This document shows, piece after piece, positions 25,717-42,700 of a stretch of DNA of 64,000 nucleotides. This stretch comes from Candidatus Kaiserbacteria bacterium (GTDB lineage Bacteria; Patescibacteriota; Minisyncoccia; Phycocordibacterales; Phycocordibacteraceae). How positions within the stretch are numbered: the first letter of the stretch is position 1; each line of letters opens with the position of its first letter. Under the pieces are notes generated by a model that ran no database searches, was not told the DNA's origin, and worked only from the letters and a program-made list of their open reading frames with translations. The DNA lies in NCBI GenBank assembly GCA_016182485.1, contig JACPGH010000003.1, forward strand, positions 6,331 to 70,330, written 5' to 3'. The position numbers were made by a program, and so were the translations under genes.

Positions 25717-27091
25717 GCATCATGGAAGGGGATGGAGACTTCTGTGGAGTAGCATCCGACCGTGTTATAATTTAAATCACGTGAATAGCAACGGTAAGCA
25801 GCACGGGTTGGATCGGTATGCATTCGAAAAGACCCGTTCAATTTTGAGATTATTCCGCAATGGAAGCAAGCGGGTTCCACAAGGCCGTACGCCAGGTAAG
25901 GTTAAAGTCGCCTTCATCCATGGCGAGAAACGGCTGGGTTCAGGCATTCGTACCGGTGCGGCGCAGATCAACCGGCTCATGGTAAGCGCACTTAATGAGC
26001 GCCGCGTGTTGGTGCGGAACTTCTATCCGCGCGTGCAGCTATTTGATACCCCCGCGCATATCAAAGGCATAGCGAATATTTTGTTCTTCTATTCTCTTCT
26101 GGAACACAAAAATGAGATGCTAAAGTACGATGTGATCCAAGGAACTACCTATACGCCGCTCCCGTTTCTTACGTTTGACGTGCCGGTCGTGTGCCATTTC
26201 GGGTCTACTGCCCGCGGTTATCTCGCTTCTACGCCGCGAACTTCCGAACTGCCGCCTCATGAACGGGCTGTTTACAAAGAATTCGTGCGGCTTGGCGTCA
26301 TTCCTGAATTTGATTATAAGACATTGCGTCCGATAGAAGACGTTGCCGACATCGAAGCTGTCGCCGCGCAACGCGCGGCAGCATGTGTCGCCACTTCTGC
26401 AAAAGTCAGGGATGAGCTTATCGCGGCAGGAGCACGTCCCGAGCGCATATGGCTCATCCACAATGCGATCGAGGATTATTGGTTCTATCCGCCGCGCGAA
26501 ACTGCGCCTCAGCAACCGCACCTCGTTTTCTTGGGGCGACTCGGTAATGACGTATTCACTCTTAAACTCAAGGGTCTTTCCAGGCTCGTTAATTTTTACA
26601 ACGCTTTTCCGGAGACGCCGAAAACTACCGTATGCATGACGACCAATCGCAAGCTAAAGGAATGGCTTCGCGTCGCGTTCCCCTTGCATTATATGTACGT
26701 CAATCTGCGAAAAGATCTTATCCCGGGAGCGCTGGCTCCATTGCGCGGAAGTATCTTATTCCTTTCTTCCCGATATGAAGGGTTTTCTCTCAGTCTGATA
26801 GAAGGCATGTCGCAGGGACTGGTTCCTGTTGCCTTCCCAGTTGGCGTAGCCGAGGAAATCATACGAGACGGAGAAAACGGCTTTCTGGTCTCATCTACGG
26901 AAGAAGCTATTGCGCGGACGGGATTACTACTGGCAGACGATGCGAGGCGCCTCGAAATGGCTAGGGCTGCCCAGCAAACCGCAGCGCAATTCAGGGCAGA
27001 ACGCATAGCTGAAGATCTGGAACGGCTCTATCTGGAACTAAAGCGAGAACGGCAAGAACAGCGCGATCGGATTCCATGTGAGGCGAACTGA
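25715..27091 (+). CDS. Glycosyltransferase family 1 (GT4-like); start uncertain
   Basis: C-terminal EGFSLSLIEGMSQGLVPVAFPVGVAEEIIRDGENGFLV matches the GT1 E-x7-E region. The true start is probably an internal or non-ATG codon near 25900. Confidence 0.7.
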   Translation: MHHGRGWRLLWSSIRPCYNLNHVNSNGKQHGLDRYAFEKTRSILRLFRNGSKRVPQGRTPGKVKVAFIHGEKRLGSGIRTGAAQINRLMVSALNERRVLVRNFYPRVQLFDTPAHIKGIANILFFYSLLEHKNEMLKYDVIQGTTYTPLPFLTFDVPVVCHFGSTARGYLASTPRTSELPPHERAVYKEFVRLGVIPEFDYKTLRPIEDVADIEAVAAQRAAACVATSAKVRDELIAAGARPERIWLIHNAIEDYWFYPPRETAPQQPHLVFLGRLGNDVFTLKLKGLSRLVNFYNAFPETPKTTVCMTTNRKLKEWLRVAFPLHYMYVNLRKDLIPGALAPLRGSILFLSSRYEGFSLSLIEGMSQGLVPVAFPVGVAEEIIRDGENGFLVSSTEEAIARTGLLLADDARRLEMARAAQQTAAQFRAERIAEDLERLYLELKRERQEQRDRIPCEAN

Positions 27092-27175
27092 TCGCATCTG
27101 CGACGCCGAATTGCGGGATCTCTGAGCGGCGCTCCCGTTAATGGAATCTCCCGGATAAACCATTACGCTTCTCCC

Positions 27176-28207
27176 ATGCGAATAGCGCAGATCGCGCCTT
27201 TGGCTGAACGGGTGCCGCCCAAGAAATACGGAGGGACCGAGCGAGTCATACATGCGCTTACGGAAGAACTGGTGCGGCGAGGGCATGACGTTACGCTATT
27301 CGCGAGCGGCGACTCATTAACATCGGCGAAGTTGCACTCGGTCTATCCGCGGGCCCTGCGCGAAGCGGGGGTGAAAGATATATACGGGATGAATAATTGG
27401 CTCCTGCTTTCTATCGGGGAGGCGTATGCGTCTGCCAGCGAATTCGACGTCATCCATGATCACTTGATGCCGCTCTCGCTCGCCACCGCCAATCTCTCTT
27501 CTGCTCCCGCGGTCGGTACGATACATGGCCCGATCACTCGCGACGTGCGCAGGTTAATGCAATCCCTGCGCAATCCCAATATTGTGACGATCTCGCAGGC
27601 GCAGCTTTTTGGTAGTGCCGATATAAATCACGCGGGAACGGTATACAACGGACTTCCTATGCAAGATTATCCTTGGAGCGCAGATGCGGACGAATATTTG
27701 CTTTTCGTCGGCCGCATTTCGATGGAGAAGGGCGTGCACAATGCCATCGAAGTGGCCGATCAGCTTGGTCTGCCCCTTATCATCGCCGCCAAGCTGGAGT
27801 CGGTCGATCGGCAGTACTACCGGCAATATGTCGAACCGCGCCTCTCCTCCCGCATTACGTGGGTGGGCGAAGTGGATGAACAGGAGCGCAATCGTCTCAT
27901 GAGCCGGGCGCGCTGTTTCTTGCATCCGGTCGAGTGGCGAGAACCCTTCGGGCTAACGCTTATAGAGGCTATGGCCTGCGGTTGTCCCGTAATCGCGTTC
28001 CGAAAAGGCTCTATCCCCGAGATCGTGAAAGACGGGGAAACCGGGTACGTCGTGGAAGATGTTGCTGAAATGGCGGCGGCGGCGGATACTATTGAAGCCA
28101 TTGATCGAAGTTACTGCCGAACGTATGCGCTCGAGAATTTCAGCGCGGCGCGGATGACTGACGGATACGAGGCGGTATATAGAAAAATTTTCGAGCAACA
28201 TGAATAA
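27176..28207 (+). CDS. Glycosyltransferase family 4
   Basis: MRIAQIAP...YGGTERVIHALTEELVRRGHDVTLF N-terminal GT4 domain. C-terminal EPFGLTLIEAMACGCPVIA...GETG. Confidence 0.85.
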   Translation: MRIAQIAPLAERVPPKKYGGTERVIHALTEELVRRGHDVTLFASGDSLTSAKLHSVYPRALREAGVKDIYGMNNWLLLSIGEAYASASEFDVIHDHLMPLSLATANLSSAPAVGTIHGPITRDVRRLMQSLRNPNIVTISQAQLFGSADINHAGTVYNGLPMQDYPWSADADEYLLFVGRISMEKGVHNAIEVADQLGLPLIIAAKLESVDRQYYRQYVEPRLSSRITWVGEVDEQERNRLMSRARCFLHPVEWREPFGLTLIEAMACGCPVIAFRKGSIPEIVKDGETGYVVEDVAEMAAAADTIEAIDRSYCRTYALENFSAARMTDGYEAVYRKIFEQHE

Positions 28208-29450
28208 AGACGAATTGTGGGCGCTCGGCATTGCAAGCATCAAGAGCCTCGAGACGGACTGGGGCGTTCTCGCCTCGGGGCGGGGCGAACTTTTCGGATG
28301 CGTTTTTGGCAGAGATTCGCTCATCACGAGCCTTTCGCTGCTCAAGGTTTACAGAAAGACTGGCGATGCGTACTTCCTACAGCTGGTCAACAAGGTGCTT
28401 ATGCGGCTCGCGGAGCTGCAAGGGCGCGCCATCAACATCGAGAACGGGGAAGAGCCGGGCAAATGCATCCATGAATTCCGGCTGGATAAGCACGAGCATC
28501 TCACTCAGGCGCTCGAGCCCTGGCACGTCTCTTCGGACGGCTCGATGCGCAATTACGATTCCGTAGACGCGACGCCGCTCTTCCTCATGGCGCTCTATGA
28601 GTATCTCTCTGTTGCGCCGCCCTCCGAGGATGCCGCCCCGCTTCTGCGGGCGGCGCACCGCGCGCTCGCCTGGCTTACGGAGCACGGGGATTCCAATCGA
28701 GACGGCTTCATAGATTATCGATTCCATCCCGACCGGAAACACGGAGGCCTGCGGGTGCAGAGCTGGATGGACAGCAGTGAATCGCTGTTCTTCGAGATTC
28801 AGGAAGAAAAACCCGCATACGCGATCGCTCCCGTCGAAGTCCAGGCATACGCCTATGTGGCGCTTCTCGAGTGGGCCGATTACTTCTCTAAGGAAGCCCC
28901 TACATTCTCCCGGGACCTCTTGATGCGGGCGGGCAATCTCAAGCGGCGCTTCAACTCCGCCTTCGTTTTGCCGCATGGAAAATCGTTAACGCTCGCATTC
29001 GCCGTGGACGGGAACGGAAGAAGGCTCACTAGCGCGCGTTCTAGCATGGCTCACGTTCTCTGGGCCGTCAGACGCTCGGGTCAATCTGCACCGGACGGTA
29101 TCCTGGATGCCTCGCTCGTGCCGAAGCTTGTCAAAAGACTTCTCTCGCCGGACCTCTACGTGCCTTCGGCGGGCATTCGTACCTTGAGCTCGCGTTCCAG
29201 GCGGTTTAATCCGGTGAGCTACCACAACGGCTCCATATGGCCGCACGATACGGAACTGTTCGCAGCAGGCCTGGAGAACTACGGGTATCGAGAAGATGCC
29301 GAGCGGGTGCGGGCGGGCCTTTTGCGCTCATATCGGCATTTCAAGACTCCCATAGAACTCTTCGGATACCGGCGCGGATTTCGGGAATACGAGGCGAGCT
29401 GCCGCGTACAGGCTTGGAGCGCTGCCGCAATCCTTTCGGGACTGGCCTGA
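28200..29450 (+). CDS. Amylo-alpha-1,6-glucosidase / glycogen-debranching-like (GDE_C, six-hairpin glycosidase)
   Basis: CVFGRDSLIT and the overall (alpha/alpha)6 pattern. 416 aa. Confidence 0.7.
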   Translation: MNKDELWALGIASIKSLETDWGVLASGRGELFGCVFGRDSLITSLSLLKVYRKTGDAYFLQLVNKVLMRLAELQGRAINIENGEEPGKCIHEFRLDKHEHLTQALEPWHVSSDGSMRNYDSVDATPLFLMALYEYLSVAPPSEDAAPLLRAAHRALAWLTEHGDSNRDGFIDYRFHPDRKHGGLRVQSWMDSSESLFFEIQEEKPAYAIAPVEVQAYAYVALLEWADYFSKEAPTFSRDLLMRAGNLKRRFNSAFVLPHGKSLTLAFAVDGNGRRLTSARSSMAHVLWAVRRSGQSAPDGILDASLVPKLVKRLLSPDLYVPSAGIRTLSSRSRRFNPVSYHNGSIWPHDTELFAAGLENYGYREDAERVRAGLLRSYRHFKTPIELFGYRRGFREYEASCRVQAWSAAAILSGLA

Positions 29451-29497
29451 AGCGGGAATTCACGCCAACTTTCCGGCTGGTCCGCCATGATGTACGC

Positions 29498-30331
29498 ATG
29501 TCGCGCGGCGAGGTGCGAATAGGGACGTCCGGGTGGATGTACAAAGATTGGGGTAAAGAATTCTATCCGTCCGGGATGAGGGAGGGTTTCCTGACGTATT
29601 TGGCAGGCGAATTCGACACGGTCGAGATAAACAATTCTTTCTACCATCTGCCGCTCATGAAGACCTTTTCGGCATGGAGGGCTCAAACTCCGGAGCATTT
29701 CCTGTTCGCCGTAAAATTATCGCGTTATATCACGCATAGGAATTTGCCGAGCGCGCGGCAGCCGCTTTTCCGCTTTCTCTCGCACGCGAAGCGGCTGGAG
29801 CATAAACTGGGGCCGATTCTGGTCCAACTCCCGCCCTGGAAGAAATTTTCCGAGGAATGGCTCGGCCGTTTCCTAACGGATGTACAGGCGGCTGCGCAGC
29901 GCGCGCGTATTTCTCCGAGATTCGCTCTTGAACCCAGGCACGCGAGCTGGCTTGAGAATATTGAAACCGTTCGCGAACGACTTCGAGAGGTAAACATAGC
30001 GCTCGCCCAGCACCAAACTGGGTTTGGTGCTGGGCTCGTCTTCCCGCATTCCGCAAAGATACCTTCCATTCCGCCGGACGAGGCAAACATAACCGCAGAT
30101 TTCGCCTATGTCCGTTTCCACGGCCCTTCCGAATTCGCCGCTTCCCGCTACGGGGAGAAGCGCTTAAAGCCGTGGGCGGAACGGATCAGCAAATGGCAGG
30201 AAAAGGGGGTTCAGATATTTTGCTATTTCAATAACGACGTGCATGGACATGCCGTCCATGACGCGCGCACGTTAAAGCAGCTTGTAGGCATCAGCGAGCC
30301 TCGCGCGAGAACTCTTTTTCAAGACGGGTAA
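29498..30331 (+). CDS. DUF72 (YecE-like) family protein
   Basis: IGTSGWMYKDW...FYP...VEINNSFY is the DUF72 N-terminal signature. Start at MSRGEV. Confidence 0.8.
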   Translation: MSRGEVRIGTSGWMYKDWGKEFYPSGMREGFLTYLAGEFDTVEINNSFYHLPLMKTFSAWRAQTPEHFLFAVKLSRYITHRNLPSARQPLFRFLSHAKRLEHKLGPILVQLPPWKKFSEEWLGRFLTDVQAAAQRARISPRFALEPRHASWLENIETVRERLREVNIALAQHQTGFGAGLVFPHSAKIPSIPPDEANITADFAYVRFHGPSEFAASRYGEKRLKPWAERISKWQEKGVQIFCYFNNDVHGHAVHDARTLKQLVGISEPRARTLFQDG

Positions 30332-32138
30332 CGGCCTCCTTAAGGTCCACGCTTTGTGCAAGCATCGGCCGCATCAGGTCGCCTTTCTTCTTGAGCCTTT
30401 CCAAAATCGTTTTGATATTGAACTTCTTTGGCTCGAGGCCCTTCTTCACCTCCCGCCACTCTAGTGGCGTGGAAACAGTCGCGCCGGCGAAAGGGCGCAG
30501 AGAGTAGGGAGCCGCGACGGTTTGCCCATAGCGGTTTTGCAGGTAGTCGAGATATATCTTGTCTTTGCGTTTCTTGGGCGAACGCTCGATGCTCGTTATG
30601 TCGGGCAGTTTACGATGCGCCAGCCGCATGATTAGTTCCGCAAAATCTTTCACCGCCTCATAGGGATACCGCCCGCCGAGCGGCACGAGGATATGCAGTC
30701 CTGTTTTGCCGCTCGTTTTGGGGTAGGAGCGCGCGCCGGCTTTCGCAAGTAGGCGGTTGATTTCGCCTGCGACCGCGATCACGTCCTCGAACGGACGTCC
30801 GTTCGGATCGATATCGAATATCATGAAATCCGGCTTCTCGAGATTCCCGACCCGCGAACTCCACGGGTTGATCTCGATACAGCCGAGATTCGCCATGTAG
30901 AGAAGAGTTTCTTTGTTGTTACAGACTAGATACTCGATCTTTTTCCGGTTCGTATCCGACCAGATCTTTACGCTCTGCGCGAAAGGCGGCACCGCGCCCG
31001 ATATGTCTTTCTGGAAAAAACTCTTGCCCTGCCAGCCGTTCGGATGGCGGTTCAGGTTTTCGGGCCGGCCTTTAAGATAAGGCAGGATGGTCTCGGCCAG
31101 GCGGTCGTAATACTCGATAAGGTCGCCTTTGGTGTAGCCTTCTTCCGGCCAAAAAACTTTATCAAGATTGCTGAAGTGCGGGCTTTTTACTTTTTCTGCC
31201 GCCTCATTCCTCGGGAATTCTCGCACCACTTCCTCGGGCTTTTTATCAATGCGAAGGCCGGCGTATACGGGATGGCGCATGTACCCCTCCGGCGTCCATT
31301 CTGAAAACGCGCTTTCGATTACATATTTCGGGTTCACCCAAGTGATCGGGGAGTTGATCGGCACGCGCTCTTTGAGAGGCGCTGTATTCCGGACTGTTTT
31401 CGACAATGTAGCGTGGAGCTCGGCGAGTTCGCGGTCGGTAAAGCCGCCTCCCGAATGGCCGATATACCTGAGCCGCCCGTTCTCGTATGCGCCGAGCACG
31501 AGAGCGCCTAAGTGCTTGCGCGAGCCGCGCGGCTTCGTGAAGCCGATAATGACGGCTTCCTGTGTATTGAGATTCTTTACTTTGAGCCAGTCCCCGCCGC
31601 GAACTCCCTCGCGATAGGGACTTTTCGGATCCTTAGCCACCATGCCCTCGAGCCCGTGCGCGCGCATGAGGTCGAAGAATTTCTTGCCGTGGTTTTCGGC
31701 GTGTTCGCTAAAAAGCAGGTGTGCGTCGTGCGGCAATATCTCGCGCAGGCGCTTCTTGCGCTCGGAGAGCGGCTTCTGGCGCAGGTCCTCTCCGTCAAAA
31801 TAGAGCAAATCGAATACCGCGTATTGGAGTGGGGAGGGCACATGCTCATAGTCTTGCAGCGCGTGAAAGTCCGGTCTGCCATCCTTAAGCGCGATGATTT
31901 CTCCATCGAGCACGCAAGTATGACGGATCTTCTTAAGGGCTCCCGCGATCGGCGCATACCGTTTTGAGAAATCAATGCCGTGGCGCGAGTAGAGCCGTAC
32001 GGAACCGGACTCGATCTCGGCAATGGCGCGGTAGCCGTCCCATTTCGTTTCGAAGTACCAGCCGTCTTTATCGAACGGCTCGCGAACCAGGGTCGCGAGC
32101 ATCGGGCGCACGCGCCGCGGCATTTGCGCGCGCGTCAT
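30291..32138 (-). CDS. ligD: ATP-dependent DNA ligase LigD, ligase + polymerase (PolDom) domains
   Basis: KWDGYR (KxDG) ligase motif in the N-terminal half; LigD primase-polymerase domain in the C-terminal half. Start at MTRAQMP, a 4-nt overlap with the upstream PE ORF. Confidence 0.85.
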   Translation of the reverse strand: MTRAQMPRRVRPMLATLVREPFDKDGWYFETKWDGYRAIAEIESGSVRLYSRHGIDFSKRYAPIAGALKKIRHTCVLDGEIIALKDGRPDFHALQDYEHVPSPLQYAVFDLLYFDGEDLRQKPLSERKKRLREILPHDAHLLFSEHAENHGKKFFDLMRAHGLEGMVAKDPKSPYREGVRGGDWLKVKNLNTQEAVIIGFTKPRGSRKHLGALVLGAYENGRLRYIGHSGGGFTDRELAELHATLSKTVRNTAPLKERVPINSPITWVNPKYVIESAFSEWTPEGYMRHPVYAGLRIDKKPEEVVREFPRNEAAEKVKSPHFSNLDKVFWPEEGYTKGDLIEYYDRLAETILPYLKGRPENLNRHPNGWQGKSFFQKDISGAVPPFAQSVKIWSDTNRKKIEYLVCNNKETLLYMANLGCIEINPWSSRVGNLEKPDFMIFDIDPNGRPFEDVIAVAGEINRLLAKAGARSYPKTSGKTGLHILVPLGGRYPYEAVKDFAELIMRLAHRKLPDITSIERSPKKRKDKIYLDYLQNRYGQTVAAPYSLRPFAGATVSTPLEWREVKKGLEPKKFNIKTILERLKKKGDLMRPMLAQSVDLKEAVTRLEKEFSREAR

Positions 32139-32722
32139 GGCCGCTTCGAGTCGCGCGGGAGCTTCTTGCCGGTCTTCACCGATTTCGTATCTTTTGTGAC
32201 GTCTTTCGCGCTCGCGTATTTGTCCTTTTCTTTGATCAAGAGCCAAGCATTGTCCTTCCCGCCCTTCTGATTTCGGATTTTCACGAGCGCGAAGCCGCCT
32301 TGGAGCTTTTTGCCGAGCAGGACGAATTTAAGCTCTCCTTCGCCGTACCCCTGTCTAAGCTTTTCGCGGCTCTCTTTCGGGTCGGCCGTTTCGCTCGAGG
32401 TATACAGCCCCTCGTCCCAGACTATGACGTCTCCCGCGCCGTACTCTCCCTCCGGAATGACGCCCTCGAAATCTTTGTATGAATACGGGTGGTCCTCGAC
32501 CTCCATCGCGAGCCGCTTGTCGGCCGGATTGAGCGACGGGCCTTTCGGCACGGCCCAGCTCTTCAGTACGCCGTCTAGCTCGAGGCGGAAATCGTAATGC
32601 AGGCGCGAAGCGTCGTGCTTCTGCACGACGAAATGAAGTGCTCCCGTCCGTGAAGCTTTTTGCGGTTTGGGTTCCGGTGTTTTAGAGAATTTGCGTTTCT
32701 TTTTATATTCAGCTAACGGCAT
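32135..32722 (-). CDS. LigD 3'-phosphoesterase (PE) domain protein, separate ORF
   Basis: HYDFRLE and SWAVPKG motifs of the LigD PE domain. Lys-rich C-terminal tail. Confidence 0.8.
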   Translation of the reverse strand: MPLAEYKKKRKFSKTPEPKPQKASRTGALHFVVQKHDASRLHYDFRLELDGVLKSWAVPKGPSLNPADKRLAMEVEDHPYSYKDFEGVIPEGEYGAGDVIVWDEGLYTSSETADPKESREKLRQGYGEGELKFVLLGKKLQGGFALVKIRNQKGGKDNAWLLIKEKDKYASAKDVTKDTKSVKTGKKLPRDSKRP

Positions 32723-32740
32723 GCTCCTATTTTAGTGGCC

Positions 32741-32768
32741 TTGACATGGTAAAGCAAGTGTGTATACT
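32741..32768 (+). promoter_or_regulatory. Sigma70 promoter (TTGACA-N16-TATACT) for the DGR target gene, divergent from ligD
   Basis: Read directly. AGAGGAG Shine-Dalgarno 8 nt before the ATG at 32843. Confidence 0.55.
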
Positions 32769-32842
32769 ATAAAAAGCTAATGAACGCGGTTCCCGTGTTC
32801 AGGGCAGCTATGTACTTTCGTGCTTTCAGAGGAGATGACGCC

Positions 32843-33475
32843 ATGGCGAAAGCTGTGTCCCCATCCGCAGTGAATCCCATTAGCATTGGGCAGGCCGCGA
32901 AGTTCCTCGACCTGCAGATGGCCGCGCTACGCAAGAGCGGCCTGCCGAGCGGACCAACGCAGCAGGTGCTCGAGAGCCAGGGCGCCGCTCTGGCCGACGA
33001 GTTCGTCACATTGGTCCGTAGGCGCGTCGAGGCAATCTCGGATCTAATCGTCCGCGTCGTCGCGAAGGTCGACCGCTCGCGCACGCCGCAGGAGGCACTC
33101 GACGCGACTGGTCGAACGCAGTACGTCGACCGCGGTGTCGCGAAGGCGATGCCGCGTGGCACGGGCGAGGGTGCCAAGACGGAATTTTTCGAGCTCGATC
33201 TCTCGCGGCGCGGCGGATGGATCAGCGACTCTGACCTCGACAAGGAGTACGCGCTCCGTGGCCTCGTCCCCGAGGATCCTTACTCGCTCGCGGCACAGAA
33301 CGAGGCTGATCCGGCCTTCGCCGACGAGCACCCCAACGCCACGCACTGGAAGGATGCGAATGGCAGTTGGTGTTACGCGGCGTTCTTCCTCTGGCGCGAT
33401 GAGCGCTACGTGCGCGTCCACCGCTGCGACAGCGACTGGCTCGACCGCTGGTGGTTCGCCGGTCGCCGCAAGTAG
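32843..33475 (+). CDS. DGR target (variable) protein with C-terminal VR
   Basis: The 3' ~100 nt (VR) pair with the downstream TR and differ almost only at TR adenines. The C-terminus ...LWRDERYVRVHRCDSDWLDRWWFAGRRK corresponds to TR-encoded ...LWNDERNLNVNRNDNDWNDNWWFAGRRN. Start could also be 32780 or 32810. Confidence 0.7.
   Translation: MAKAVSPSAVNPISIGQAAKFLDLQMAALRKSGLPSGPTQQVLESQGAALADEFVTLVRRRVEAISDLIVRVVAKVDRSRTPQEALDATGRTQYVDRGVAKAMPRGTGEGAKTEFFELDLSRRGGWISDSDLDKEYALRGLVPEDPYSLAAQNEADPAFADEHPNATHWKDANGSWCYAAFFLWRDERYVRVHRCDSDWLDRWWFAGRRK
33375..33472 (+). repeat. DGR variable repeat (VR)
   Basis: Aligns with 33792-33889. TR AAC codons correspond to VR TAC, CGC, CAC, TGC, AGC, CTC and CGC. 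There are 11 A-site substitutions and one non-A (C to G) change. An identical GC-rich 3' end ctggtggttcgccggtcgccgcaa (IMH-like) is followed by hairpins at 33480-33580. Confidence 0.8.
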
Positions 33476-33791
33476 TTCTAGGGACTCGATCCTCGGTTCT
33501 TTCAGAACCTTGGGATTGAGTCCTTGCATTCGGGCTCCGCATTGCCTCACGGCGTGCGGAGTCCTTTCGTTTTGATACAATCGATAACGGCGCTAGGCGA
33601 ATACGCGGGCGACCACGCGTCTCCCGCTGCCCGCGATCACGGTTTCGAGTAGCGTGGTGTATGTAGACCTTAAAAATTGAAGATACTTGGTGCGGACCTC
33701 TCTGGCATTATAATGCCGAATCAGATACAGCTCGGAGATCGGCAGAGGCCTTCAATGGGCAGTGGTACGGATGGAGGTCCGCACATTGCGA

Positions 33792-33889
33792 CGTTCAACC
33801 TCTGGAACGATGAGCGCAACCTGAACGTCAACCGCAACGACAACGACTGGAACGACAACTGGTGGTTCGCCGGTCGCCGCAACTCTTCA
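33792..33889 (+). repeat. DGR template repeat (TR)
   Basis: AAC-rich (8 AAC codons in the VR reading frame). The overlapping six-frame ORF 33677-33985 is incidental. Confidence 0.8.
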
Positions 33890-34303
33890 TTCCCCGGCCC
33901 CGCCCTCATGCGGGGCTTGGTTTTGTTTGGTCAATTGACCATTCCAGCCGCCGAGCATTCTGCCGACCTCCTCAAGCGGAATTGAGAGAGCGGCGTATCG
34001 CTTTGTCTCGAACGAATTTGTTTCCCAGAGCACCATAAGCAGCAGCTTGACGGTATCGAGCTTGCGGATGGCGAGCCGCACCCACGGTTGCTTCTCACTG
34101 CGCTGCAGGACTCCCGCGAATCCGGCGGCCTCGATAACGTCGATAAACAATGCATCAATGCGGTTGCCGAGCGTGTAGCGGTGGAGCTTCGGGAGTTTCT
34201 GATATTCGTACCAAAGCAGATATGCCGCCTTTAATTTCTGCAAAACCGGAAGAATCGTCGGGGGGGGGGGTTGCTCATGGAGTCTTGCATACGACAATAT
34301 CAT
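33887..34303 (-). CDS. avd: DGR accessory variability determinant (Avd)
   Basis: C-terminus EVGRMLGGWNGQ and the upstream helices match Bordetella phage bAvd (EVGRILGSWIAR..., LPKLHRYTLGNRID versus IPRKHGVAREMF). 139 aa. Contains a PPPP stretch encoded by the C11 run. Confidence 0.8.
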   Translation of the reverse strand: MILSYARLHEQPPPPTILPVLQKLKAAYLLWYEYQKLPKLHRYTLGNRIDALFIDVIEAAGFAGVLQRSEKQPWVRLAIRKLDTVKLLLMVLWETNSFETKRYAALSIPLEEVGRMLGGWNGQLTKQNQAPHEGGAGE

Positions 34304-34744
34304 TTCCGTCGAAAACCTGCTTGCCGCATGGCAGGAATTCGCGAAAGGGAAGCGCAAGAAAAGCGATGTGCAGGAATTCGGGCGATATTTGATGCAGAAT
34401 ATTTTGGAGCTACACCGCGACCTTGCGGCCGGCACCTTTAAACACGGCGGGTGCGGACGATTTCGTTATCCTTTCCGCTGAACGAACACAGCTGCTCGAG
34501 TCTCTACGATATATCGTAGTATTTCTCCGCGCCCGTCTGAAACTCACATTGCATCCCGATAAAGTCTCTGTCTAGAGAAGCGACGATTGCCTCATATCTA
34601 GGCATGCTTCGCCATGGCAATACGAACAAACTGCAACAAGTTCCACTCAATGCCGCTAGACTGCTTTCTCAAGCTTGCGGATCCTGCGCTCGTGATCGAA
34701 AATCCGATCCCTATCTCTATCGTGAGCGTCGGAAAGAGATGTGA
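34222..34744 (+). pseudogene. DGR reverse transcriptase remnant (N-terminal region only; frameshifted, multiple stops, 3' truncated)
   Basis: Frame-0 translation DNIISVENLLAAWQEFAKGKRKKSDVQEFGRYLMQNILELHRDLAAGTFKHG aligns with the bRT N-terminus (DQITTWENLWDAYRKTSHGKRRTWGYLEFKEYDLANLLALQAELKAGNYERG). RP..TH..A (motif 2) is recognisable further on. The ATG at 34222 is in frame only if the G tract were 12 nt. Stops at 34479, 34519, 34558 and 34742. No YxDD region anywhere downstream. Confidence 0.7.
34260..34270. repeat. G11 (C11) homopolymer tract at the divergent Avd / RT 5' ends
   Basis: cgtcgggggggggggttgc read directly. It lies within the Avd N-terminal codons and immediately upstream of the RT homology. 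Confidence 0.9.
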
Positions 34745-34760
34745 GTTCATCCTGAATGTC

Positions 34761-35006
34761 TTAAATCCTATTCTGAACCTTTCCTAACGTACGCTGCACG
34801 TCTCCGAGACGGACATCTATATTATCCATGCGATCATCCATCGCATTAAATCTCTGAGTTGTTCTTCCCTCGAAATTGTCAACGCGTTTCTCTACGGTAT
34901 CAAATCGCTTATCTACGGTATCAAACCGCTCATTCATTACCGCAAGCACTTCGCCGAGTGTCGGTTCGGGTATAGCAGCTTTTCTTATCCGCTTCATGTC
35001 TGCCAT
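34761..35006 (-). CDS. Small coiled-coil protein downstream of ku, containing a 21-bp tandem duplication
   Basis: MADMKRIRK...FDTVDKRFDTVEKRVDNFEGRTTQRFNAMDDRMDNIDVRLGDVQ. The DNA 34895-34936 is two 21-bp units with 2 mismatches. Confidence 0.45.
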   Translation of the reverse strand: MADMKRIRKAAIPEPTLGEVLAVMNERFDTVDKRFDTVEKRVDNFEGRTTQRFNAMDDRMDNIDVRLGDVQRTLGKVQNRI

Positions 35007-35037
35007 TGTATCACCCTCACCAAACGGATTGCGGGTG

Positions 35038-35832
35038 CTACCGCGTTCCGGAGTGGGCGGGGCGGCGCTCTTGCTCAAGGCTCTTGCGCAGGGCTTCCAT
35101 GAGATTCCGCATATCGGTCGGGACGGGAGCTTCTTCTTCGGATACCTTGATCGGCTTGCCTTTCGCCTTGCGGGCGATAACTTTCTTCAGATCGCCGGTA
35201 TAGGTGTCCTTATATTGGCTCGCGTCGAAATGTTCCTCGAGCTGCTTGATGAATGCGACGGTAAGGTCGAATTCTTTGCTTGAAAATTTAGTAGATTCGG
35301 GGATATGCAGGTCTGTAGGCTTGCGTAATTCCTCTTCGAATCGCAGGCGGATGAGCATGAGCGCCTTGCCCTCGGGCTTGAGCATGGCGATATGCTCGCG
35401 GTCTTTCAGAACGAACGTGCCTATGCCGACCTTTTTAGAACGCGCCAGCGCTTCGCGCAGGAGCACGTACGCTTTCTCGGCGCTCGGATCCGGCTCCAGA
35501 TAATACGGCTTTTCTATGAACCGGCTTTCTACCTCCTCCTCGTTCGCGAAGCTCTGCACGTCGATCGTCTTGGTCTTCTTGGGCGCCGCTTTCTCGAAAT
35601 CCTCATCGGTCAGTATCACATAATCGCCCTTCTGATATTCGTAGCCTTTTACGATATCTTCGGGTTTCACCTCCTCATTCGTCCCGCGACATACCTTGAG
35701 GTAGCTGATGGGGCAGTGCCCATGCTTGTCGAGCAGGCGGAACGAGAGCGCCCGCTCCTCGCTCGCGTTGTAAAGCTTTACGGGTATGGATACTAGGCCG
35801 AAAGTAAGCGCGCCTGACCAGATTGCTCTCAT
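35038..35832 (-). CDS. ku: Ku protein (NHEJ DNA end-binding)
   Basis: MRAIWSGALTFGLVSIPVKLY N-terminus and Ku core. Lys-rich C-terminal tail. 264 aa. Confidence 0.9.
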   Translation of the reverse strand: MRAIWSGALTFGLVSIPVKLYNASEERALSFRLLDKHGHCPISYLKVCRGTNEEVKPEDIVKGYEYQKGDYVILTDEDFEKAAPKKTKTIDVQSFANEEEVESRFIEKPYYLEPDPSAEKAYVLLREALARSKKVGIGTFVLKDREHIAMLKPEGKALMLIRLRFEEELRKPTDLHIPESTKFSSKEFDLTVAFIKQLEEHFDASQYKDTYTGDLKKVIARKAKGKPIKVSEEEAPVPTDMRNLMEALRKSLEQERRPAHSGTR

Positions 35833-35911
35833 ATAACTACTATGACCCGCCCCGAATGACGGTTCGATGAATCAGGATAAGTGGAACGTTTTCCACATGG
35901 TCATGGCCATA

Positions 35912-35993
35912 TATACCCCCCTCAGGGTATACTGGCCGTATACCATCTTTCGTATGGAAAAACTTTGACCAATACCCCCATAGGGTATATACT
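35912..35993 (+). promoter_or_regulatory. csoR promoter (TTGACC-N17-TATACT) with two CsoR-type operators (TATACCC-N6-GGGTATA and ATACCC-N5-GGGTAT)
   Basis: Operator 1 is tatacccccctcagggtata (35912-35931). Operator 2 is atacccccatagggtatat (35972-35990) and overlaps the -10 element. Confidence 0.6.
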
Positions 35994-36000
35994 TTGAGAC

Positions 36001-36273
36001 ATGGAATATATGCCCAAAACGGAGAAAGGGAAACTTGTGCGCCGGCTCAAGATTATCGAGGGGCAGGTGCGGGGGCTTGTCGCGATGATCGAACGGGACA
36101 CCTATTGCATCGACGTCATAACTCAGACTTCGGCGGTGAAGCAAGGACTTTCCACGGCAGAGGACCTGCTCATGAGGAATCACCTGAATAACTGCGTCCG
36201 GAACCAAATGTCGTCAGGGCAGGCGCTAAAAGCCGTTAGCGAGGTTATGAAGGTGTATAAATTGAAGAAATAG
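36001..36273 (+). CDS. csoR: Copper-sensing transcriptional repressor CsoR/RcnR family
   Basis: [33 protein letters not shown] with the conserved Cys and His ligand positions. 90 aa. Confidence 0.8.
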
Positions 36274-36280
36274 CACTTGC

Positions 36281-38845
36281 ATGAAAACACAAACATATAA
36301 GATCCACGGTATGCACTGCGCGAGCTGTGTGGCGGTCATCGAGCGCGTACTTGGCAGAACGGTCGGCGTCCGCTCCGCCTCCGTAAATTTCGCTGCCGAA
36401 TCCGCCCTAGTCGAATTCGATGAAAAGGCGGTTTCAGAGCCGCAACTTGCCGAAGCGGTCGCTTCCGCCGGCTATCATCTGATCACCGGCGCAACTGATG
36501 GACAAACTGATGGACACGTCGCGTCCATCAAAGCTGAAGGACACGACGTGTCTACAACCCGGACCATTTCAATCCAAGTGCTCGGTATGGATTCGCCGCA
36601 TTGCGCCATGGTCGTAGAGGGCGCGCTCAAGAATCTGCCCGGCATACGGAACTCCGAACTGGATTTCGCCAACCAGCGGGCGAAGATTTCTTTCGACTCC
36701 CCGTTGACCGCAGAGCAAATTTTCGCAGTGATCCGTGACGCCGGATACAAGCCCTTTCTTGAGGAGGGGAGGGCAGAAGACCTTTTGGACAGGGAGAAAG
36801 TCGAACGGGAACAAGAGGCGCGGATCATGAGGCGCAAGCTTGCGGTAGGGGGAATTCTGGCGGTGCTCGTATTTCTCGGCAGCTTCCCGCAATGGTTCCC
36901 GTTCATGCCCGAGATAGCAAGGAATCCCTGGACCCTGCTCCTCCTCACCGCCCCGATCCAGTTCTGGGTCGGTTCGCAATTCTATAACGGGCTCAAATTG
37001 CTGGTGAAATACCGGACGGCTGACATGAACACGCTGGTTGCCATCGGCACTCTCTCCGCATTTCTTTACAGCGCGGCAGTCACGGCCTTTCCAGACTTCT
37101 TCATGCGGGGCGGTATCGCGCCCGAGTTATACTTCGACACCTCGGCCATAATCATCGTTCTTATCCTCTTGGGAAAGTATTTTGAGATCCAGATGAAAGG
37201 CCGAGCTTCAGAAGCGATAAAGAAGCTCATCGGACTACAGCCGAAGACGGCTATAGTCCTTCGGGATGCAAAAGAAGTTGAGATACCCATCATCGAAGTC
37301 GTCCCTGGAGACAGAGTCATCGTCCGCCCCGGGGAGCGCATACCGGTAGACGGGAAGATTCTCGACGGAGAATCTGAAGTGGACGAGTCAATGCTCACCG
37401 GAGAATCTATGCCCGTTCATAAAAAGGCGGGGAGCATGGTCATCGGGAGCACGATAAACAAATTCGGTACCTTTAGCTTTGAGGCCGCCAAAGTCGGCAA
37501 GGACACCATTCTTGCGAGGATAATAAAGATGGTGGAAGAAGCTCAGGGCTCTAAAGCGCCGATCCAGCGGTTGGCGGACCTTATTTCCTCTTATTTCGTG
37601 CCGGCAGTTCTCGGTATTGCGATCGCCACCTTTGGCGTCTGGCTCTTTTTCGGCCCGGCACCAGCCTTCACGTTCGCTCTAGTTAATTTTGTAGCAGTTC
37701 TCATCATCGCCTGCCCGTGCGCGCTCGGCCTCGCCACGCCAATGGCTATCATGGTTTCTGCTGGCAGCGCCGCCGGGAAGGGGATACTGATAAAAGACGC
37801 GGCTTCGCTCGAGATCGCGAACAAAATCAACACGGTCGTCCTCGATAAGACAGGCACGCTCACGGTGGGGAAGCCGGAGTTGACCGATATCGTCGCCTGG
37901 AATAACGCGCAGCAGCCGGAGGTTCTTCACTATGCCGCGTCGCTCGAGCAGAGGTCGGAGCATCCGCTCGCGCAAGCCATTCTGCAATATGCCGCGAGCC
38001 TGGATCAGAAATCGTCGCATCCTTTGGATAGCGCGATCATCGCCGAAGGCGCAAAGGAGAAGCTCGCTCTCTACCGGCTGGAAGATTTTCAGGCTATTTC
38101 CGGTAAGGGTTTGCGCGGGTATTTGTTCGACGGTTCGCAGAAATATGAAGCGCATCTCGGTAACCGGAGCCTTATGGAAGATATAGGGCTTTCGACTGCG
38201 CCGTACGAAAAAACGATTGCCGATCTCGAGAGCCAGGGGAAGACCGTCATGATCCTCGCGGCAGAAAGAGAGATCAAGGGCGCGCTCGCGGTGGCGGATG
38301 TGCTGAAGAAAGAATCTGCCGCCGCAGTCCGAACGCTCAGGAAAAAAGGCATAGACGTCTGGATGCTTACGGGAGACAACGAGCGCACGGCTCGCGCTAT
38401 CGCGAAAGAAGCCGGAATAGAGAATGTAATGAGCGGCGTTCTCCCCGATCAGAAAGCGCTCAAAATACGCGAACTGCAGACGGCGGGGAATATCGTCGCG
38501 ATGGTGGGCGACGGCATAAATGATGCGCCGGCGCTCACGCAGGCGAATATCGGCATCGCCATGGGAGAAGGCACGGATATCGCGATGGAATCAGCGAACA
38601 TAACGCTTATGCGCGGGGACCTGAGGCTTATTCCGGAAGTGATCCAACTCTCGCAGCGGACTTTGCGGATAGTCAAGCAGAACCTGTTCTGGGCCTTCTT
38701 CTACAACATCGCGTTCATCCCCGTCGCGGCAGGAGTCTTATATCCGTTTTTCGGCCTCCTGCTCAATCCGATCTTCGCGGGCGCCGCCATGGCCGCGAGC
38801 AGCATCAGCGTAGTGCTCAATTCCCTGCGGCTTCGGAGTGTATAG
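36281..38845 (+). CDS. copA: Copper-translocating P1B-type ATPase
   Basis: Two HMA domains (GMHCASC and MDSPHCA), CPC motif (ACPCALG), [17 protein letters not shown]. 854 aa. Confidence 0.95.
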
Positions 38846-39037
38846 GTTCCGAAACATTTATGCCCGGAGCCGTTACAAGATATGCATCCCTATTTTCGAG
38901 CGGTCGCCTAAAAATAGGGATAATGCCGGGATTCACAGGGACCGTGTAGTTTATTGACGGCAGGGCATGATCCGTGGTATTCTGTTTTGCAGAAAGTTCG
39001 CACCCATAACAGCAAAAAAGGAGAAGGAGGGGAAGTC

Positions 39038-39505
39038 ATGACGGCCGAAAGACTCCTGTACCTCATTGGCTCAGTGCCGGTGCCTGCGCTTCCGGAGTTC
39101 GTCGCCGCGGAGAAGTTCCGAGTCGGTGAGACGACCGACGGCCTCACCGTCGGCTGGCTCGACGACAACTTCAAGAAGCACTTCCTCGGCAAGATCGAGG
39201 AAGCAGTCGAGGCGGCGGAGCTGCGCGTGCACGAGCTCATCAAGCCCTCGCGCGACCCGGCTCTTATCGCCGAGCTCGGCGGCGGGGACAAGGCCGAAAT
39301 CAGCCTCGGCCAGTTCTGGCACTTCCTCACGAAGGCTAACCGTGTCCGCTGGTGGGTCTGTTGGTACTGCGCCCACATCCGCGACCTGGACAGAGTGCTC
39401 TGGGTTGTGAGCGCGTCCTGGGGTGGCGTCGACCTTCGCGTCGCGGTCCGTTCGGTTGACAACCCGTTCAGGTTGGACGCGGGCCGCCGATTTCTCTCCC
39501 GCTGA
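39038..39505 (+). CDS. Hypothetical protein
   Basis: Strong AAGGAGAAGGAGG Shine-Dalgarno before the ATG at 39038. No recognisable domain. Confidence 0.45.
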   Translation: MTAERLLYLIGSVPVPALPEFVAAEKFRVGETTDGLTVGWLDDNFKKHFLGKIEEAVEAAELRVHELIKPSRDPALIAELGGGDKAEISLGQFWHFLTKANRVRWWVCWYCAHIRDLDRVLWVVSASWGGVDLRVAVRSVDNPFRLDAGRRFLSR

Positions 39506-39624
39506 TTCTGCAGCGCTCTGACATTTGACCCGCTGTACCTTGGGCTCTTTGAACCTTTGCGAAGCAATTCGCGGAGCGTAGGAGAGCCCATCTGTTTTGT
39601 ATAACGTGCTATACTAATGCCACG

Positions 39625-40017
39625 ATGGATTTAGCATCCAAAAAGTTTGTCGCGCCGCTCGCTCTCGCGGTATTTCTTTTCGCCGCGCTGTTCGGATTCG
39701 CGGCGATGGGGGCGCACATGCAAGAGGGCTGTTCATTAATAGTCTCGGGAGCGGCGCCGTGCCCGGAAAATATCGTGGCCGTCGCGGTGCACCACTTATC
39801 TGCGTACCAAACTTTCAGTCACGTGCCGCTCGATTTTGGCGTCCTCTTTTTATTGGAAATCCTCCTCTTCGCCGCATTTGCCGCGGCGGTGTTCAAAATA
39901 TCACCGCCTCTTGCCGCCGTCCCAGCATATTTTCCGCACGGGCCTCCGCAGTCTATCCTTTCCAGACAAAAACTCACGCGCTGGCTTTCTCTTCTCGAAC
40001 ATAGTCCTTCTTTTTAA
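39625..40017 (+). CDS. Hypothetical small membrane protein with C-x9-CP motif
   Basis: Signal/TM N-terminus, CSLIVSGAAPCPEN, then a second TM segment. Confidence 0.4.
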   Translation: MDLASKKFVAPLALAVFLFAALFGFAAMGAHMQEGCSLIVSGAAPCPENIVAVAVHHLSAYQTFSHVPLDFGVLFLLEILLFAAFAAAVFKISPPLAAVPAYFPHGPPQSILSRQKLTRWLSLLEHSPSF

Positions 40018-40075
40018 TCGCGAAGCTCGCCTCTCAGCGAGCGATTCCGGGCGCTTATTCGTTTCCTATCTATCT

Positions 40076-40582
40076 ATGAAAATAAGCCTCATCAGCATCG
40101 TTGCAGCGGTTCTGCTCGTACTCGTCGGGCTCTTCTTGTGGGGATACTCGGGCGGCGCGGCAGGCACATCCAACCCTTCTCTCTCCGGCGCAGAGAGCGC
40201 GCTCGTCGCGGCCGAGAAATCCTACGACTTCGGCACCATATCGATGAAGAATGGGAACGTCACGAAAGACTTCGTAATCACCAATCCTACGCAGGCAGAC
40301 CTTAAGGTAGCTTCAGTTAGCACTTCGTGCATGTGCACCAACGCGTACATCGTTAAACCGGACGGCAGCTTGAAGGGGCCCTTCGGCATGGCCGGCCATG
40401 GCGGATTCGTGCCGCCGGCAAATGAAGTGATCGAAGCGGGCGGCAGCCGTACGATCCGCGTCGTTTATGATCCGAACGCGCACGGACCGGCAGGCGTCGG
40501 GAAGATAGACCGGTTCGTGACCCTGGCGGATTCCGCCGGCAATACGCTAGACCTCGAGATACAGGCGCTCGTTACCCCATAG
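40076..40582 (+). CDS. DUF1573-domain membrane-anchored protein
   Basis: N-terminal TM anchor, YDFGTI...NGNVTKDFVITN...SCMCT pattern. Confidence 0.6.
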   Translation: MKISLISIVAAVLLVLVGLFLWGYSGGAAGTSNPSLSGAESALVAAEKSYDFGTISMKNGNVTKDFVITNPTQADLKVASVSTSCMCTNAYIVKPDGSLKGPFGMAGHGGFVPPANEVIEAGGSRTIRVVYDPNAHGPAGVGKIDRFVTLADSAGNTLDLEIQALVTP

Positions 40583-40584
40583 GC

Positions 40585-41367
40585 ATGAAACGGATATCCA
40601 TTATCGGAGGCGCCATCGCGCTCTTCATCCTCGCTGTACTTATCCTGAAATTGAACCCGACAACCTCGACGCTCATCTGGAATGCGAGCAACGGGGGCGC
40701 CTGGCTCTTACCGCTCGTTCTTGCGTCGGCCCTACTCGACAGCGTGCATCCTTGCTCGTTCTCGATCCTTCTCATCACGATCGCCTTCCTCTTCGGACTC
40801 CAGATGACGCGGGAAAAGATATTGCGTATCGGCGGCACGTATATAGCGGGCATATTTGCCGCGTACCTGCTTATCGGACTCGGTATTCTCCAGGTGCTGC
40901 ACTTATTCAATACGCCGCACTTCATGGGGAAGCTGGGGGCTCTGCTGCTCGTACTCTTCGGCGTGGTCAATCTTGTGAATCGGTTCTTCCCTAAGACGCC
41001 GATCAAGCTCTCCATCCCGCAAGCCGCGCATCGGCCTATGGCGCGCCTTATGGAGCAGACTTCATATGTTGCGGCATTCGGGCTCGGGGCGCTCGTCGGC
41101 ATCTGCCAATTCCCCTGCATGGGCGGTCCGTACCTCATGGTGATCGGGCTTCTGCGCGACAAGATGACTTATTTGGCGGGATTCTGGTATTTAGTCCTCT
41201 ATAACGCCATCCTTATCGTTCCACTCGCGCTCGTGCTGTGGTTCTCGGCGGATAAGGCGGTTGTGGATAAATTCCAAGCATGGAAGCGGGACAATCTCTC
41301 TCGCGTGCGGCTAATCGCCGGCATCGCGATGATAGGATTAGGGAGTCTGATTTTCTTCGTCGCATAG
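40585..41367 (+). CDS. ccdA: Cytochrome c-type biogenesis / thiol-disulfide transporter CcdA (DsbD_2 family)
   Basis: DSVHPCSF and QFPCMGGP, the two conserved Cys of CcdA. Six TM segments. Confidence 0.8.
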   Translation: MKRISIIGGAIALFILAVLILKLNPTTSTLIWNASNGGAWLLPLVLASALLDSVHPCSFSILLITIAFLFGLQMTREKILRIGGTYIAGIFAAYLLIGLGILQVLHLFNTPHFMGKLGALLLVLFGVVNLVNRFFPKTPIKLSIPQAAHRPMARLMEQTSYVAAFGLGALVGICQFPCMGGPYLMVIGLLRDKMTYLAGFWYLVLYNAILIVPLALVLWFSADKAVVDKFQAWKRDNLSRVRLIAGIAMIGLGSLIFFVA

Positions 41368-41371
41368 CAGT

Positions 41372-41806
41372 ATGGAAATCGTAATCGTCATCGCGTCGAT
41401 CCTTGCCATCGCGCTTCTCGCGTGGGCGGTGAATCGAATATCTTCGTTTCCGATCTGCCCAATATGCGCCGGAGTCGCAGGCACGTGGCTCGCGATGCTC
41501 GCCCTGCGTTTCGCCGGGTATGCTGTGCCGGTCACGCTCATGGCAATGCTCATTGGCGGTTCGGTGGTCGGCATCGCTTATCAGCTTGAAAGACGCGTAT
41601 CTAAGCCGCGTCTTTTCAAAGCGCTCGCCATCCCGGCCGGCTTCGTCGCGGGATATGGGATAGTTGCCGAAGAGTGGCTGCTCGCTTTCTTGGCCGGCCT
41701 GGCAGCTATTCTGATAACGGGAATTTTCCTGGAGAAATCGTCCTCGCCTGCGGCAAAAAAGAGAGGCCAACTGCTGCGCGAATTAGCGGATTGCTGTAAC
41801 GAGTAA
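41372..41806 (+). CDS. Membrane protein with CPIC motif (putative thiol-disulfide oxidoreductase-like)
   Basis: FPICPICAG between TM helices. Four TM segments. C-terminal CC. Confidence 0.45.
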   Translation: MEIVIVIASILAIALLAWAVNRISSFPICPICAGVAGTWLAMLALRFAGYAVPVTLMAMLIGGSVVGIAYQLERRVSKPRLFKALAIPAGFVAGYGIVAEEWLLAFLAGLAAILITGIFLEKSSSPAAKKRGQLLRELADCCNE

Positions 41807-41809
41807 TAT

Positions 41810-42700
41810 ATGCCCATAAAAAACTATTCAGGATTGTTCTCCGTACTCGCCGCAGGAGCGCTCATCGCTCTCGCGTTCCTCTGGTCGCCGCCGTCTTCTC
41901 CGAAGGCCGCCCCTTCTTCCGACCGGGCGGAATTAGCAGAAGTAGTGCTACCGACCGATGGCGTGACGTTGCCGGTTATCTGGGGCGAGATCGGCGCAAA
42001 GCTGGTTGAATCTGGCGCCATTGATCTCGAGAAGCTGAGAGCCCTCTACGAGAGCCGGGGCGGCTTTCCGGCAGAATATCAAAAGATGCTGGAGAAGAAT
42101 CACAGCGAGAAGGTCGTGATCACTTCTTGGAACGCCGGATACCTGCTCAATCTCCTCTGGGCGCTCGGATTGGCCAATGAGAATCCGATCCTCGAGGACA
42201 AGGACGAAATGATGAACCCGCGCTACGGAGGAGACGGACGTCCACCGGCAGCGGGCTTCGCTTCCACCGGCGGATGGTCTCTCGCGCGCGGGAATGTGAT
42301 GGACCATTACGGCAAACACAGGCTAATCTCGCTTACGACAGATCAGCAAATGCTTGTAGACCGCGTGTCGCGGAACATCTATCGGCCCTGCTGCGGCAAT
42401 TCGACGCACTTCCCGGACTGCAATCACGGCATGGCCATGCTGGGCTTACTCGAGCTTATGGCCTCGCAGGGGGTGAGCGAGGAGGAAATGTACCGGACTG
42501 CGCTTGCGGTAAATGCATACTGGTTTCCGGATACATACCTGACCATCGCGGCGTACTGGCGGGGAAAAGGCGTCGAATGGAAAGATGTCAGAGCGAAGGA
42601 GGTTCTCGGCGCAGCATTCTCGAGCGCCTCGGGGTACCGAAATATCGCAGCCCAAGTCGCTCCGCAGGGAGCGAGCGGCGGCGGCAGTTGTTCGAATTAA
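41810..42700 (+). CDS. Secreted/anchored Cys-rich protein (RPCCGNSTHFPDCNHG metal-binding-like motif)
   Basis: N-terminal signal-anchor, the Cys/His cluster, and a Gly/Ser C-terminal tail. Confidence 0.45.
   Translation: MPIKNYSGLFSVLAAGALIALAFLWSPPSSPKAAPSSDRAELAEVVLPTDGVTLPVIWGEIGAKLVESGAIDLEKLRALYESRGGFPAEYQKMLEKNHSEKVVITSWNAGYLLNLLWALGLANENPILEDKDEMMNPRYGGDGRPPAAGFASTGGWSLARGNVMDHYGKHRLISLTTDQQMLVDRVSRNIYRPCCGNSTHFPDCNHGMAMLGLLELMASQGVSEEEMYRTALAVNAYWFPDTYLTIAAYWRGKGVEWKDVRAKEVLGAAFSSASGYRNIAAQVAPQGASGGGSCSN

Follow-up and report, generated by a model that had tools for sequence, protein, structure and literature searches.

Two deletions have removed the catalytic core of the reverse transcriptase from a DGR cassette between ku and ligD of a Candidatus Kaiserbacteria genome, very probably a fossil of a CPR-specific clade

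The 64 kb window analyzed in this study (the term denotes the whole stretch of DNA) is part of a 150,032 bp contig of a Candidatus Kaiserbacteria MAG, whose Ku and CopA proteins are MBI2409621.1 and MBI2409623.1, respectively. It contains a ku-ligD operon which is interrupted by the cassette of a diversity-generating retroelement (DGR); the target protein of this DGR is MBI2409618.1 (locus tag HYV30_01075). The features of the locus, in window coordinates, are as follows.

30291-32246, minus strand: ligD
32135-32722, minus strand: ligD phosphoesterase ORF (ligD-PE)
32723-35037: insertion of approx. 2.3 kb that separates ligD-PE from ku, comprising the DGR cassette and a small coiled-coil ORF and running antisense to the operon
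32843-33475, plus strand: DGR target gene (210 aa; N-terminal helical hairpin and C-terminal C-type-lectin-like domain)
33377-33471, plus strand: variable region (VR), the last 32 codons of the target gene, a direct repeat with the TR (82% identity)
33481-33524, no strand assigned (DNA fold): hairpin just 3′ of the VR, the DGR target-recognition element
33678-33790, plus strand: RNA domain with conserved structure immediately upstream of the TR, from a covariation alignment
33788-33882, plus strand: template region (TR), forming the repeat pair with the VR
33896-33917, plus strand: terminator-like hairpin and T-run right after the TR, overlapping the 3′ end of avd on the opposite strand
33887-34303, minus strand: avd (accessory variability determinant), with its body at 33890-34258 and its only in-frame ATG at 34303
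34260-34270, no strand assigned: G11 homopolymer between the divergent avd and reverse transcriptase (RT) genes
34266-34451, plus strand: RT block A, the N-terminal region before motif 1, equivalent to aa 1-62 of the intact RT of locus L081 (70% identity by tblastn)
34453-34572, plus strand: RT block B, from the (Y)ADD box through motif 6/7, equivalent to L081 aa 224-263 (65% identity by tblastn)
34574-34744, plus strand: RT block C, the C-terminal tail, equivalent to L081 aa 302-331 (homology to 34660, 53% identity)
34761-35006, minus strand: coiled-coil ORF (81 aa), inside the insertion
35038-35832, minus strand: ku

In the window, ku and ligD-PE are separated by 2,315 nt, which accommodate both the cassette and the coiled-coil ORF. 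The distance from the ku stop to the start of the ligD phosphoesterase is 0-45 nt in 14 metagenome relatives of the window Ku, and it reaches 331 nt in a fifteenth ku-ligD relative (L100 of the set L094-L108). Compared with its CPR DGR relatives, the window copy is the only one that sits in a ku-ligD operon: neither ku nor ligD was found near any of the best 80 of at least 581 related DGR loci. Because ku and ligD-PE abut in the relatives and are absent near related DGRs, the cassette is a lineage-specific insertion which splits ku-ligD, and it marks the precise point at which the two genes have been parted in this Kaiserbacteria lineage.

The coiled-coil ORF carries a 21 nt tandem repeat at 34879-34920 (FDTVDKR/FDTVEKR). 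No homologues of this ORF were found beside other DGRs, or beside ku in the relatives.

The VR and TR differ at 17 of 95 positions, and 16 of these mismatches fall at TR adenines, in agreement with the initial annotation of this DNA, which had described the two repeats as near-identical. The sole mismatch at a different base (G at VR 33410, C at TR 33821) involves a C that is private to the MAG; among the six TR-spanning contigs from Logan per-run assemblies, five carry G at 33821, as in the VR, and therefore all 16 VR/TR mismatches are adenine-specific in most of the population. The two repeats share an identical, A-free and GC-rich 3′ core of 23 nt (TGGTGGTTCGCCGGTCGCCGCAA), which occurs nowhere else in the window. 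The hairpin following the VR has a folding energy of −13.7 kcal/mol (z = −5.25), and none of 200 shuffled sequences was equally stable. The locus thus displays several DGR hallmarks: an adenine-biased TR/VR pair, a VR placed at the 3′ end of a C-type lectin ORF, and an A-free core with a hairpin.

The target protein belongs to a CPR family of at least 652 unannotated members of approx. 205 aa that match no Pfam domain. Members of this family have an N-terminal helical hairpin and a C-type-lectin-like C-terminus, of which the last ~35 residues are hypervariable.

Directly upstream of the TR lies an RNA domain of approx. 110 nt, composed of a 12 bp closing helix and two hairpins. An alignment of 24 loci revealed compensatory double changes in 19 of the 25 predicted pairs. 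The domain is conserved in 24-27 related loci and is intact in the window. It does not match any Rfam family; an Rfam scan of the window identified a single tRNA, and near the TR it gave nothing but noise below threshold. Judging from the searches made here, this covarying RNA is a clade-wide feature which is apparently undescribed, having no counterpart in Rfam or in the passages on decay of the DGR surveys PMC5758913 and PMC8144416. It offers a testable lead on the regulation or priming of CPR DGRs. The TR itself is followed by a terminator-like hairpin, and a similar hairpin with a subsequent T-run was seen after the TR of loci L005 and L007 by visual reading of their sequences.

The product of avd was recognized by the NCBIfam profile DivGenRetAVD (E 8e-14, profile positions 1-102 of 104; 51.8 bits, cut-off 80) and by the Pfam profile bAvd (E 4e-7; 31 bits, cut-off 40), in both cases below the cut-off. 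It is 59-68% identical to the Avd proteins of intact Kaiserbacteria DGRs, and the gene is homologous to and syntenic with avd in 75 related loci. In each of the 75 loci among the best 80 relatives that gave an avd match, the gene directly precedes the RT gene and is encoded on the minus strand, and for this reason the orientation found in the window is considered the normal layout of the clade. We had also entertained the idea that the inverted avd and the poly-G tract mark a chimeric join or an inversion; this was rejected, since the same layout is normal in 71-75 related loci.

Comparison of the MAG with the Logan contigs revealed five SNPs over about 16 kb, two of which are located in the cassette (33821 in the TR and 34111 in avd). 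These two are compatible with relaxed constraint, the numbers being small. Position 34111 is C or A in the population, which corresponds to Val/Phe (codon worked out by hand).

The initial annotation had assigned degraded RT homology to 34203-34760, and this homology is real. It extends over 34266-34660 and comprises three collinear blocks of a CPR-type DGR RT, each in a different frame. In tblastn searches, CPR DGR RT fragments gave E values of 8e-22 for 34287-34463 and 8e-16 for 34453-34572, while the intact Kaiserbacteria RT of L081 (331 aa) gave 2e-34 for block A and 3e-17 for block B. Block A ends with ...FKHGG, before motif 1, and does not run through motifs 1-3 as originally proposed. 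Block B (ADDFVILSAERTQLLESLRYIVVFLRARLKLTLHPDKVSV, i.e. ADDFVIL...HPDKVSV, at 34453-34572) is a YADD box which lost its Tyr at the junction; the earlier statement that no YxDD sequence exists in any frame was therefore mistaken. Block C contains the conserved tail SYLGMLRHGNTNKL, located at about 34590-34631.

Alignment of these blocks with the intact protein identified two gaps. About 482-483 nt (aa 63-223, motifs 1-4) are missing at junction 1 (34452), and about 113-114 nt (aa 264-301, the segment after motif 7) at junction 2 (34573), with a shift of frame in both cases. One nucleotide stands at each junction, and possible microhomology is at most 0-1 nt. According to the multiple alignment, the first gap removed PKPRxIHK, KCDIRKFF and GLPLGNLTSQ (motifs 1-4) together with the Tyr of YADD, so that both the first catalytic Asp and LGNLTSQ are gone. 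The second gap removed SGxDFLGWVHF...RR. The spread of the homology over three frames was borne out; two frame changes, produced by the two deletions, are sufficient to explain it, and the three or more postulated at first are not required.

The in-frame stops that had been listed exist: TGA at 34479 and TAA at 34560 lie in the frame of block A, and TAG at 34517 and TGA at 34742 in that of block C. The last of these closes block C, and a further TAG at 34573 closes block B. The retained blocks contain no internal stops, and they share 55-76% aa identity with three intact Kaiserbacteria RTs, compared with 52-75% for those RTs among themselves. Avd shows the same pattern.

When the blocks were concatenated, the remnant scored 19.3 bits against Pfam RVT_1 (PF00078), short of the 29.6-bit cut-off, and aligned with positions 146-203 of the 205 in the profile. 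Of the motifs that define an intact RT (the Asp of motif 3, LGxxxSQ of motif 4 and YxDD of motif 5), only the ADD of YADD is kept. The earlier description of the catalytic half as missing was right in substance, since the fingers and palm motifs 1-4 are absent. The missing segments have not moved to another place in the window, as tblastn produced no match better than E 0.1 outside 34260-34672. The catalytic core of the DGR RT is truly lost through two deletions, which represents ordinary gene decay. The absence of an in-frame RT start was ruled out as a sign of decay, because it is shared with the intact loci L081 and L050.

Assembly or sequencing errors in a difficult region that mask an intact gene had been offered as an explanation of the frameshifts and gaps, and two circumstances speak in its favor: an 11 nt G homopolymer sits 10 nt upstream, and the VR/TR repeats break several contigs near 33840. 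We retrieved ten Logan per-run contigs, derived from at least eight SRA runs, by exact look-up of the Ku and target proteins; these were built with an assembler different from that of the MAG. Together they cover 26843-42435 at 99.92-100% identity with zero indels, and they reproduce both RT junctions and the G11 tract. The agreement of different runs and a different assembler across both junctions, without a single gap, led us to reject an artefact. Moreover, ~600 nt of unique coding sequence is missing, unlike what homopolymer slips produce, and an intact version is absent from the protein collection. We consider it extremely improbable that the true gene is intact. The contigs are consensus assemblies, from which low-frequency VR variants or a minor intact RT allele would escape.

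A scan of the GTDB species representatives identified related RTs at no fewer than 581 loci. Among the best 80 of these, 79 encode the RT in a single open frame of at least 328 aa, and an intact RT is therefore the norm in this DGR clade, in contrast to the RT of the window, gutted by two deletions. The suggestion that most RTs of the clade are fragmented was rejected as a search bias (it came from short proteins only), given that 79 of 80 were open in the genome scan. The closest homologues of the window RT, Avd and target all come from Patescibacteria MAGs, and the order target-VR, RNA domain, TR, terminator, avd (minus strand), G tract, RT (plus strand) is common to the window and to the DGRs restricted to CPR/Patescibacteria. 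The latter correspond to the "CPR set" of Wu et al. 2018 (PMC5758913) and to "DGR clade 2" of Roux et al. 2021 (PMC8144416).

The window cassette resembles the prototype DGRs (mtd/avd/TR/brt of Bordetella phage BPP-1, TvpA of Treponema, and the Legionella element) in its adenine-specific TR/VR mismatches, the 3′-terminal position of the VR in a target with a C-type-lectin fold, the Avd protein, the GC-rich A-free 3′ core, the hairpin that follows the VR, and those RT motifs which can still be recognized in the remnant (YADD, C-terminal tail). It differs from them in that its RT lacks motifs 1-4 and cannot be catalytic, its avd separates the TR from the RT gene and has the opposite orientation, and its TR closes in a terminator hairpin of its own. 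In BPP-1 the known structured spacer is 3′ of the TR, whereas the structured RNA of the window sits 5′ of it.

Several other decayed DGRs were identified, which likewise keep the target/VR and TR while the RT is disabled. An independent fossil DGR is present in Parcubacteria GW2011 (loci L115-L124; LBVM01000003.1 and 20 other contigs; positions ~1799-3384 in L115). In L115, a single deletion extends from avd (aa 1-62 lost) across the tract into the RT (aa 1-198 lost), with the target/VR, the RNA domain and the TR left in place; this state was found in 21 contigs. Large internal RT deletions occurred in P0007 and P0002. The RT of L005 is affected only by an in-frame TAG nonsense codon, and that of L007 only by a 1 nt frameshift, possibly a long-read error. 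Since the breakpoints differ, the decayed copies represent independent events. Deletions have thus eliminated the RT more than once in CPR genomes.

Apart from the RT, the cassette of the window is intact: this applies to avd, the structured RNA, the TR terminator, the VR hairpin and the target ORF. We infer that the RT was lost recently in evolutionary terms and that diversification of the cassette has ceased. The confinement of the decay to two deletions argues for recent loss, where "recent" is relative to species divergence, and the option of recent inactivation raised in the initial annotation is upheld by the blocks without internal stops, their ordinary divergence and the intact state of the remaining parts. 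In a working copy of such an element, one transcript carries the TR and the structured domain 5′ of it, the RT and Avd make cDNA from the TR with misincorporation opposite template adenines, and this cDNA replaces the VR, which forms the 3′ end of the target gene with the C-type-lectin fold. In the window copy, two internal deletions have taken RT residues 63-223 and 264-301, each shifting the frame; a polymerase can no longer be made, and the VR would be frozen in its last diversified state.

The 210 aa target, including the VR, is identical in seven Logan contigs and the MAG (eight assemblies, at the consensus level), and the 90%-identity cluster of this protein contains two entries only, which differ in their called start. 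Heterogeneity of the VR between samples, the mark of ongoing diversification, was thus not observed at the consensus level. A search of a 5.8-billion-protein collection yielded nothing more than 61% identical to the RT remnant, from which it follows that no intact RT allele has been assembled in any sample. An exact 25-mer of the TR end gave no match to an intact or sister allele in JGI metagenomes, and we found no close intact sister allele with which to date the deletions or read the junction microhomology.

The same observations bear on the proposal that the cassette is still active, its TR being copied in trans by an RT from a second DGR at another site in the genome or from a co-resident element. 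Such a scenario would account for the decay of the local RT alone, with avd, the TR RNA, the post-VR hairpin and the target ORF all intact, and for the restriction of VR/TR differences to adenines in five of six TR-spanning Logan contigs. However, tblastn detected no second RT within the 64 kb window, a single VR allele is fixed in all eight assemblies, and the protein cluster is devoid of variants. The avd and TR each carry one population SNP, as expected under relaxed constraint. A weaker argument comes from ten RT clusters, of which three list NCBI accessions (MCX6786407.1, MDP3645913.1 and an OGG series), none of them MBI2409xxx; the other seven list no accession. A trans-acting RT, also put forward at the outset, finds no support in these data, and we regard continued activity by this route as very improbable.

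Another possibility is that the cassette arrived between ku and ligD with its RT already defective, for instance as damaged DNA captured by end joining. It would fit the lineage-specific insertion exactly at the ku/ligD-PE junction, the junction microhomology, which we estimate at no more than 0-1 nt, and the failure to find a sister genome with an intact copy at the same site. On the other hand, the collinear order and common orientation of the blocks are what one expects from simple internal deletions, and the remaining parts are complete, with both ends of the RT gene included. The present data do not separate damage before insertion from damage after it; we judge an RT broken prior to arrival unlikely. 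We are similarly doubtful of its corollary, namely that the DGR never diversified in this genome and that its adenine-specific VR/TR differences date back to the donor.

The best reading is that the window holds a recently inactivated and now frozen DGR, very probably a fossil of the CPR-specific clade. Cassettes which lack an RT and show perfect adenine signatures are then fossils and provide no evidence of activity, which matters for DGR surveys that count RTs or TR/VR pairs, and VR sequences in genomes with a dead RT should be read as frozen alleles. The locus is a well-documented case of DGR death in a small CPR genome, in which the RT has been deleted while the target, TR, RNA scaffold and avd persist for a while.

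The G11 tract of the window is constant in the MAG and three Logan assemblies. A tract of G8-G17 was found exactly between avd and the RT gene in 71 of 77 loci (approx. 92%) of the CPR DGR clade. In the other ~695 kb of these loci, there are only nine runs of G or C of at least 7 nt. The position of the tract is taken by (CT)n or (GA)n in two of the loci that lack it.

The length of the tract varied between assemblies of two loci. In the first (L125-L133), it was G9 in four and G10 in five assemblies, and this was the only indel. In the second (L134-L138), it was G10 in three and G11 in three, again the only indel except in L136, which has an additional gap of ~70 bases about 1.8 kb downstream of the tract. 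The assemblies of these loci are otherwise at least 99.8% identical, and Illumina homopolymer stutter could mimic a 1 nt difference in tract length.

We also compared the regions of the RT start in the window (34222-34290), L081 (4945-5010) and L050 (4933-5010). In all three, the RT frame contains no ATG, GTG or TTG before the conserved N-terminus, and an upstream ATG is one G short of the RT frame. In the Kaiserbacteria subclade, an ATG located 7 nt past the tract is out of the RT frame. Among 68 loci, the nearest open ATG upstream of avd shares the avd frame in 25 and lies in another frame in 37, and the phase counts of the avd ATG are roughly those that random phase would give. Many of the upstream avd ATGs are the reverse complement of a conserved RT His codon, and internal TTG starts are possible.

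Taken together, the tract and the RT-start patterns suggest slip-strand control of avd/RT expression. Under this hypothesis, the spacing of the promoters of avd and RT, their reading frame, or both would depend on a hypermutable tract, G8-G17 in most loci and (CT)n or (GA)n in single ones. It is conceivable, and we put it forward tentatively, that G11 is the remnant of a slip-strand switch built into the whole CPR DGR clade, which would make mutagenic retrohoming itself phase-variable, and that the switch of the window was locked by the deletion of the RT.

Phase variation through homopolymer tracts is characteristic of contingency loci, e.g. those with poly-G/poly-C tracts in the Neisseria porA and opc promoters. 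Like these, the DGR tract is conserved in position and not in length, with 1 nt differences in two loci. The tract of the window differs from them in being constant (G11 in four assemblies) and in preceding a dead RT.

A full-text literature search for "homopolymer" retrieved no description of a DGR tract, and none is given in the passages on decay of PMC5758913 and PMC8144416. As far as the searches here show, the length-variable G tract between avd and RT is a clade-wide feature which is apparently undescribed, and it constitutes a testable lead on the regulation of CPR DGRs. At the P0104 locus, the first of the two length-variable loci above, the RT is joined to an upstream ATG when the tract is G10 (362 aa), and starts from a GTG when it is G9 (327 aa).
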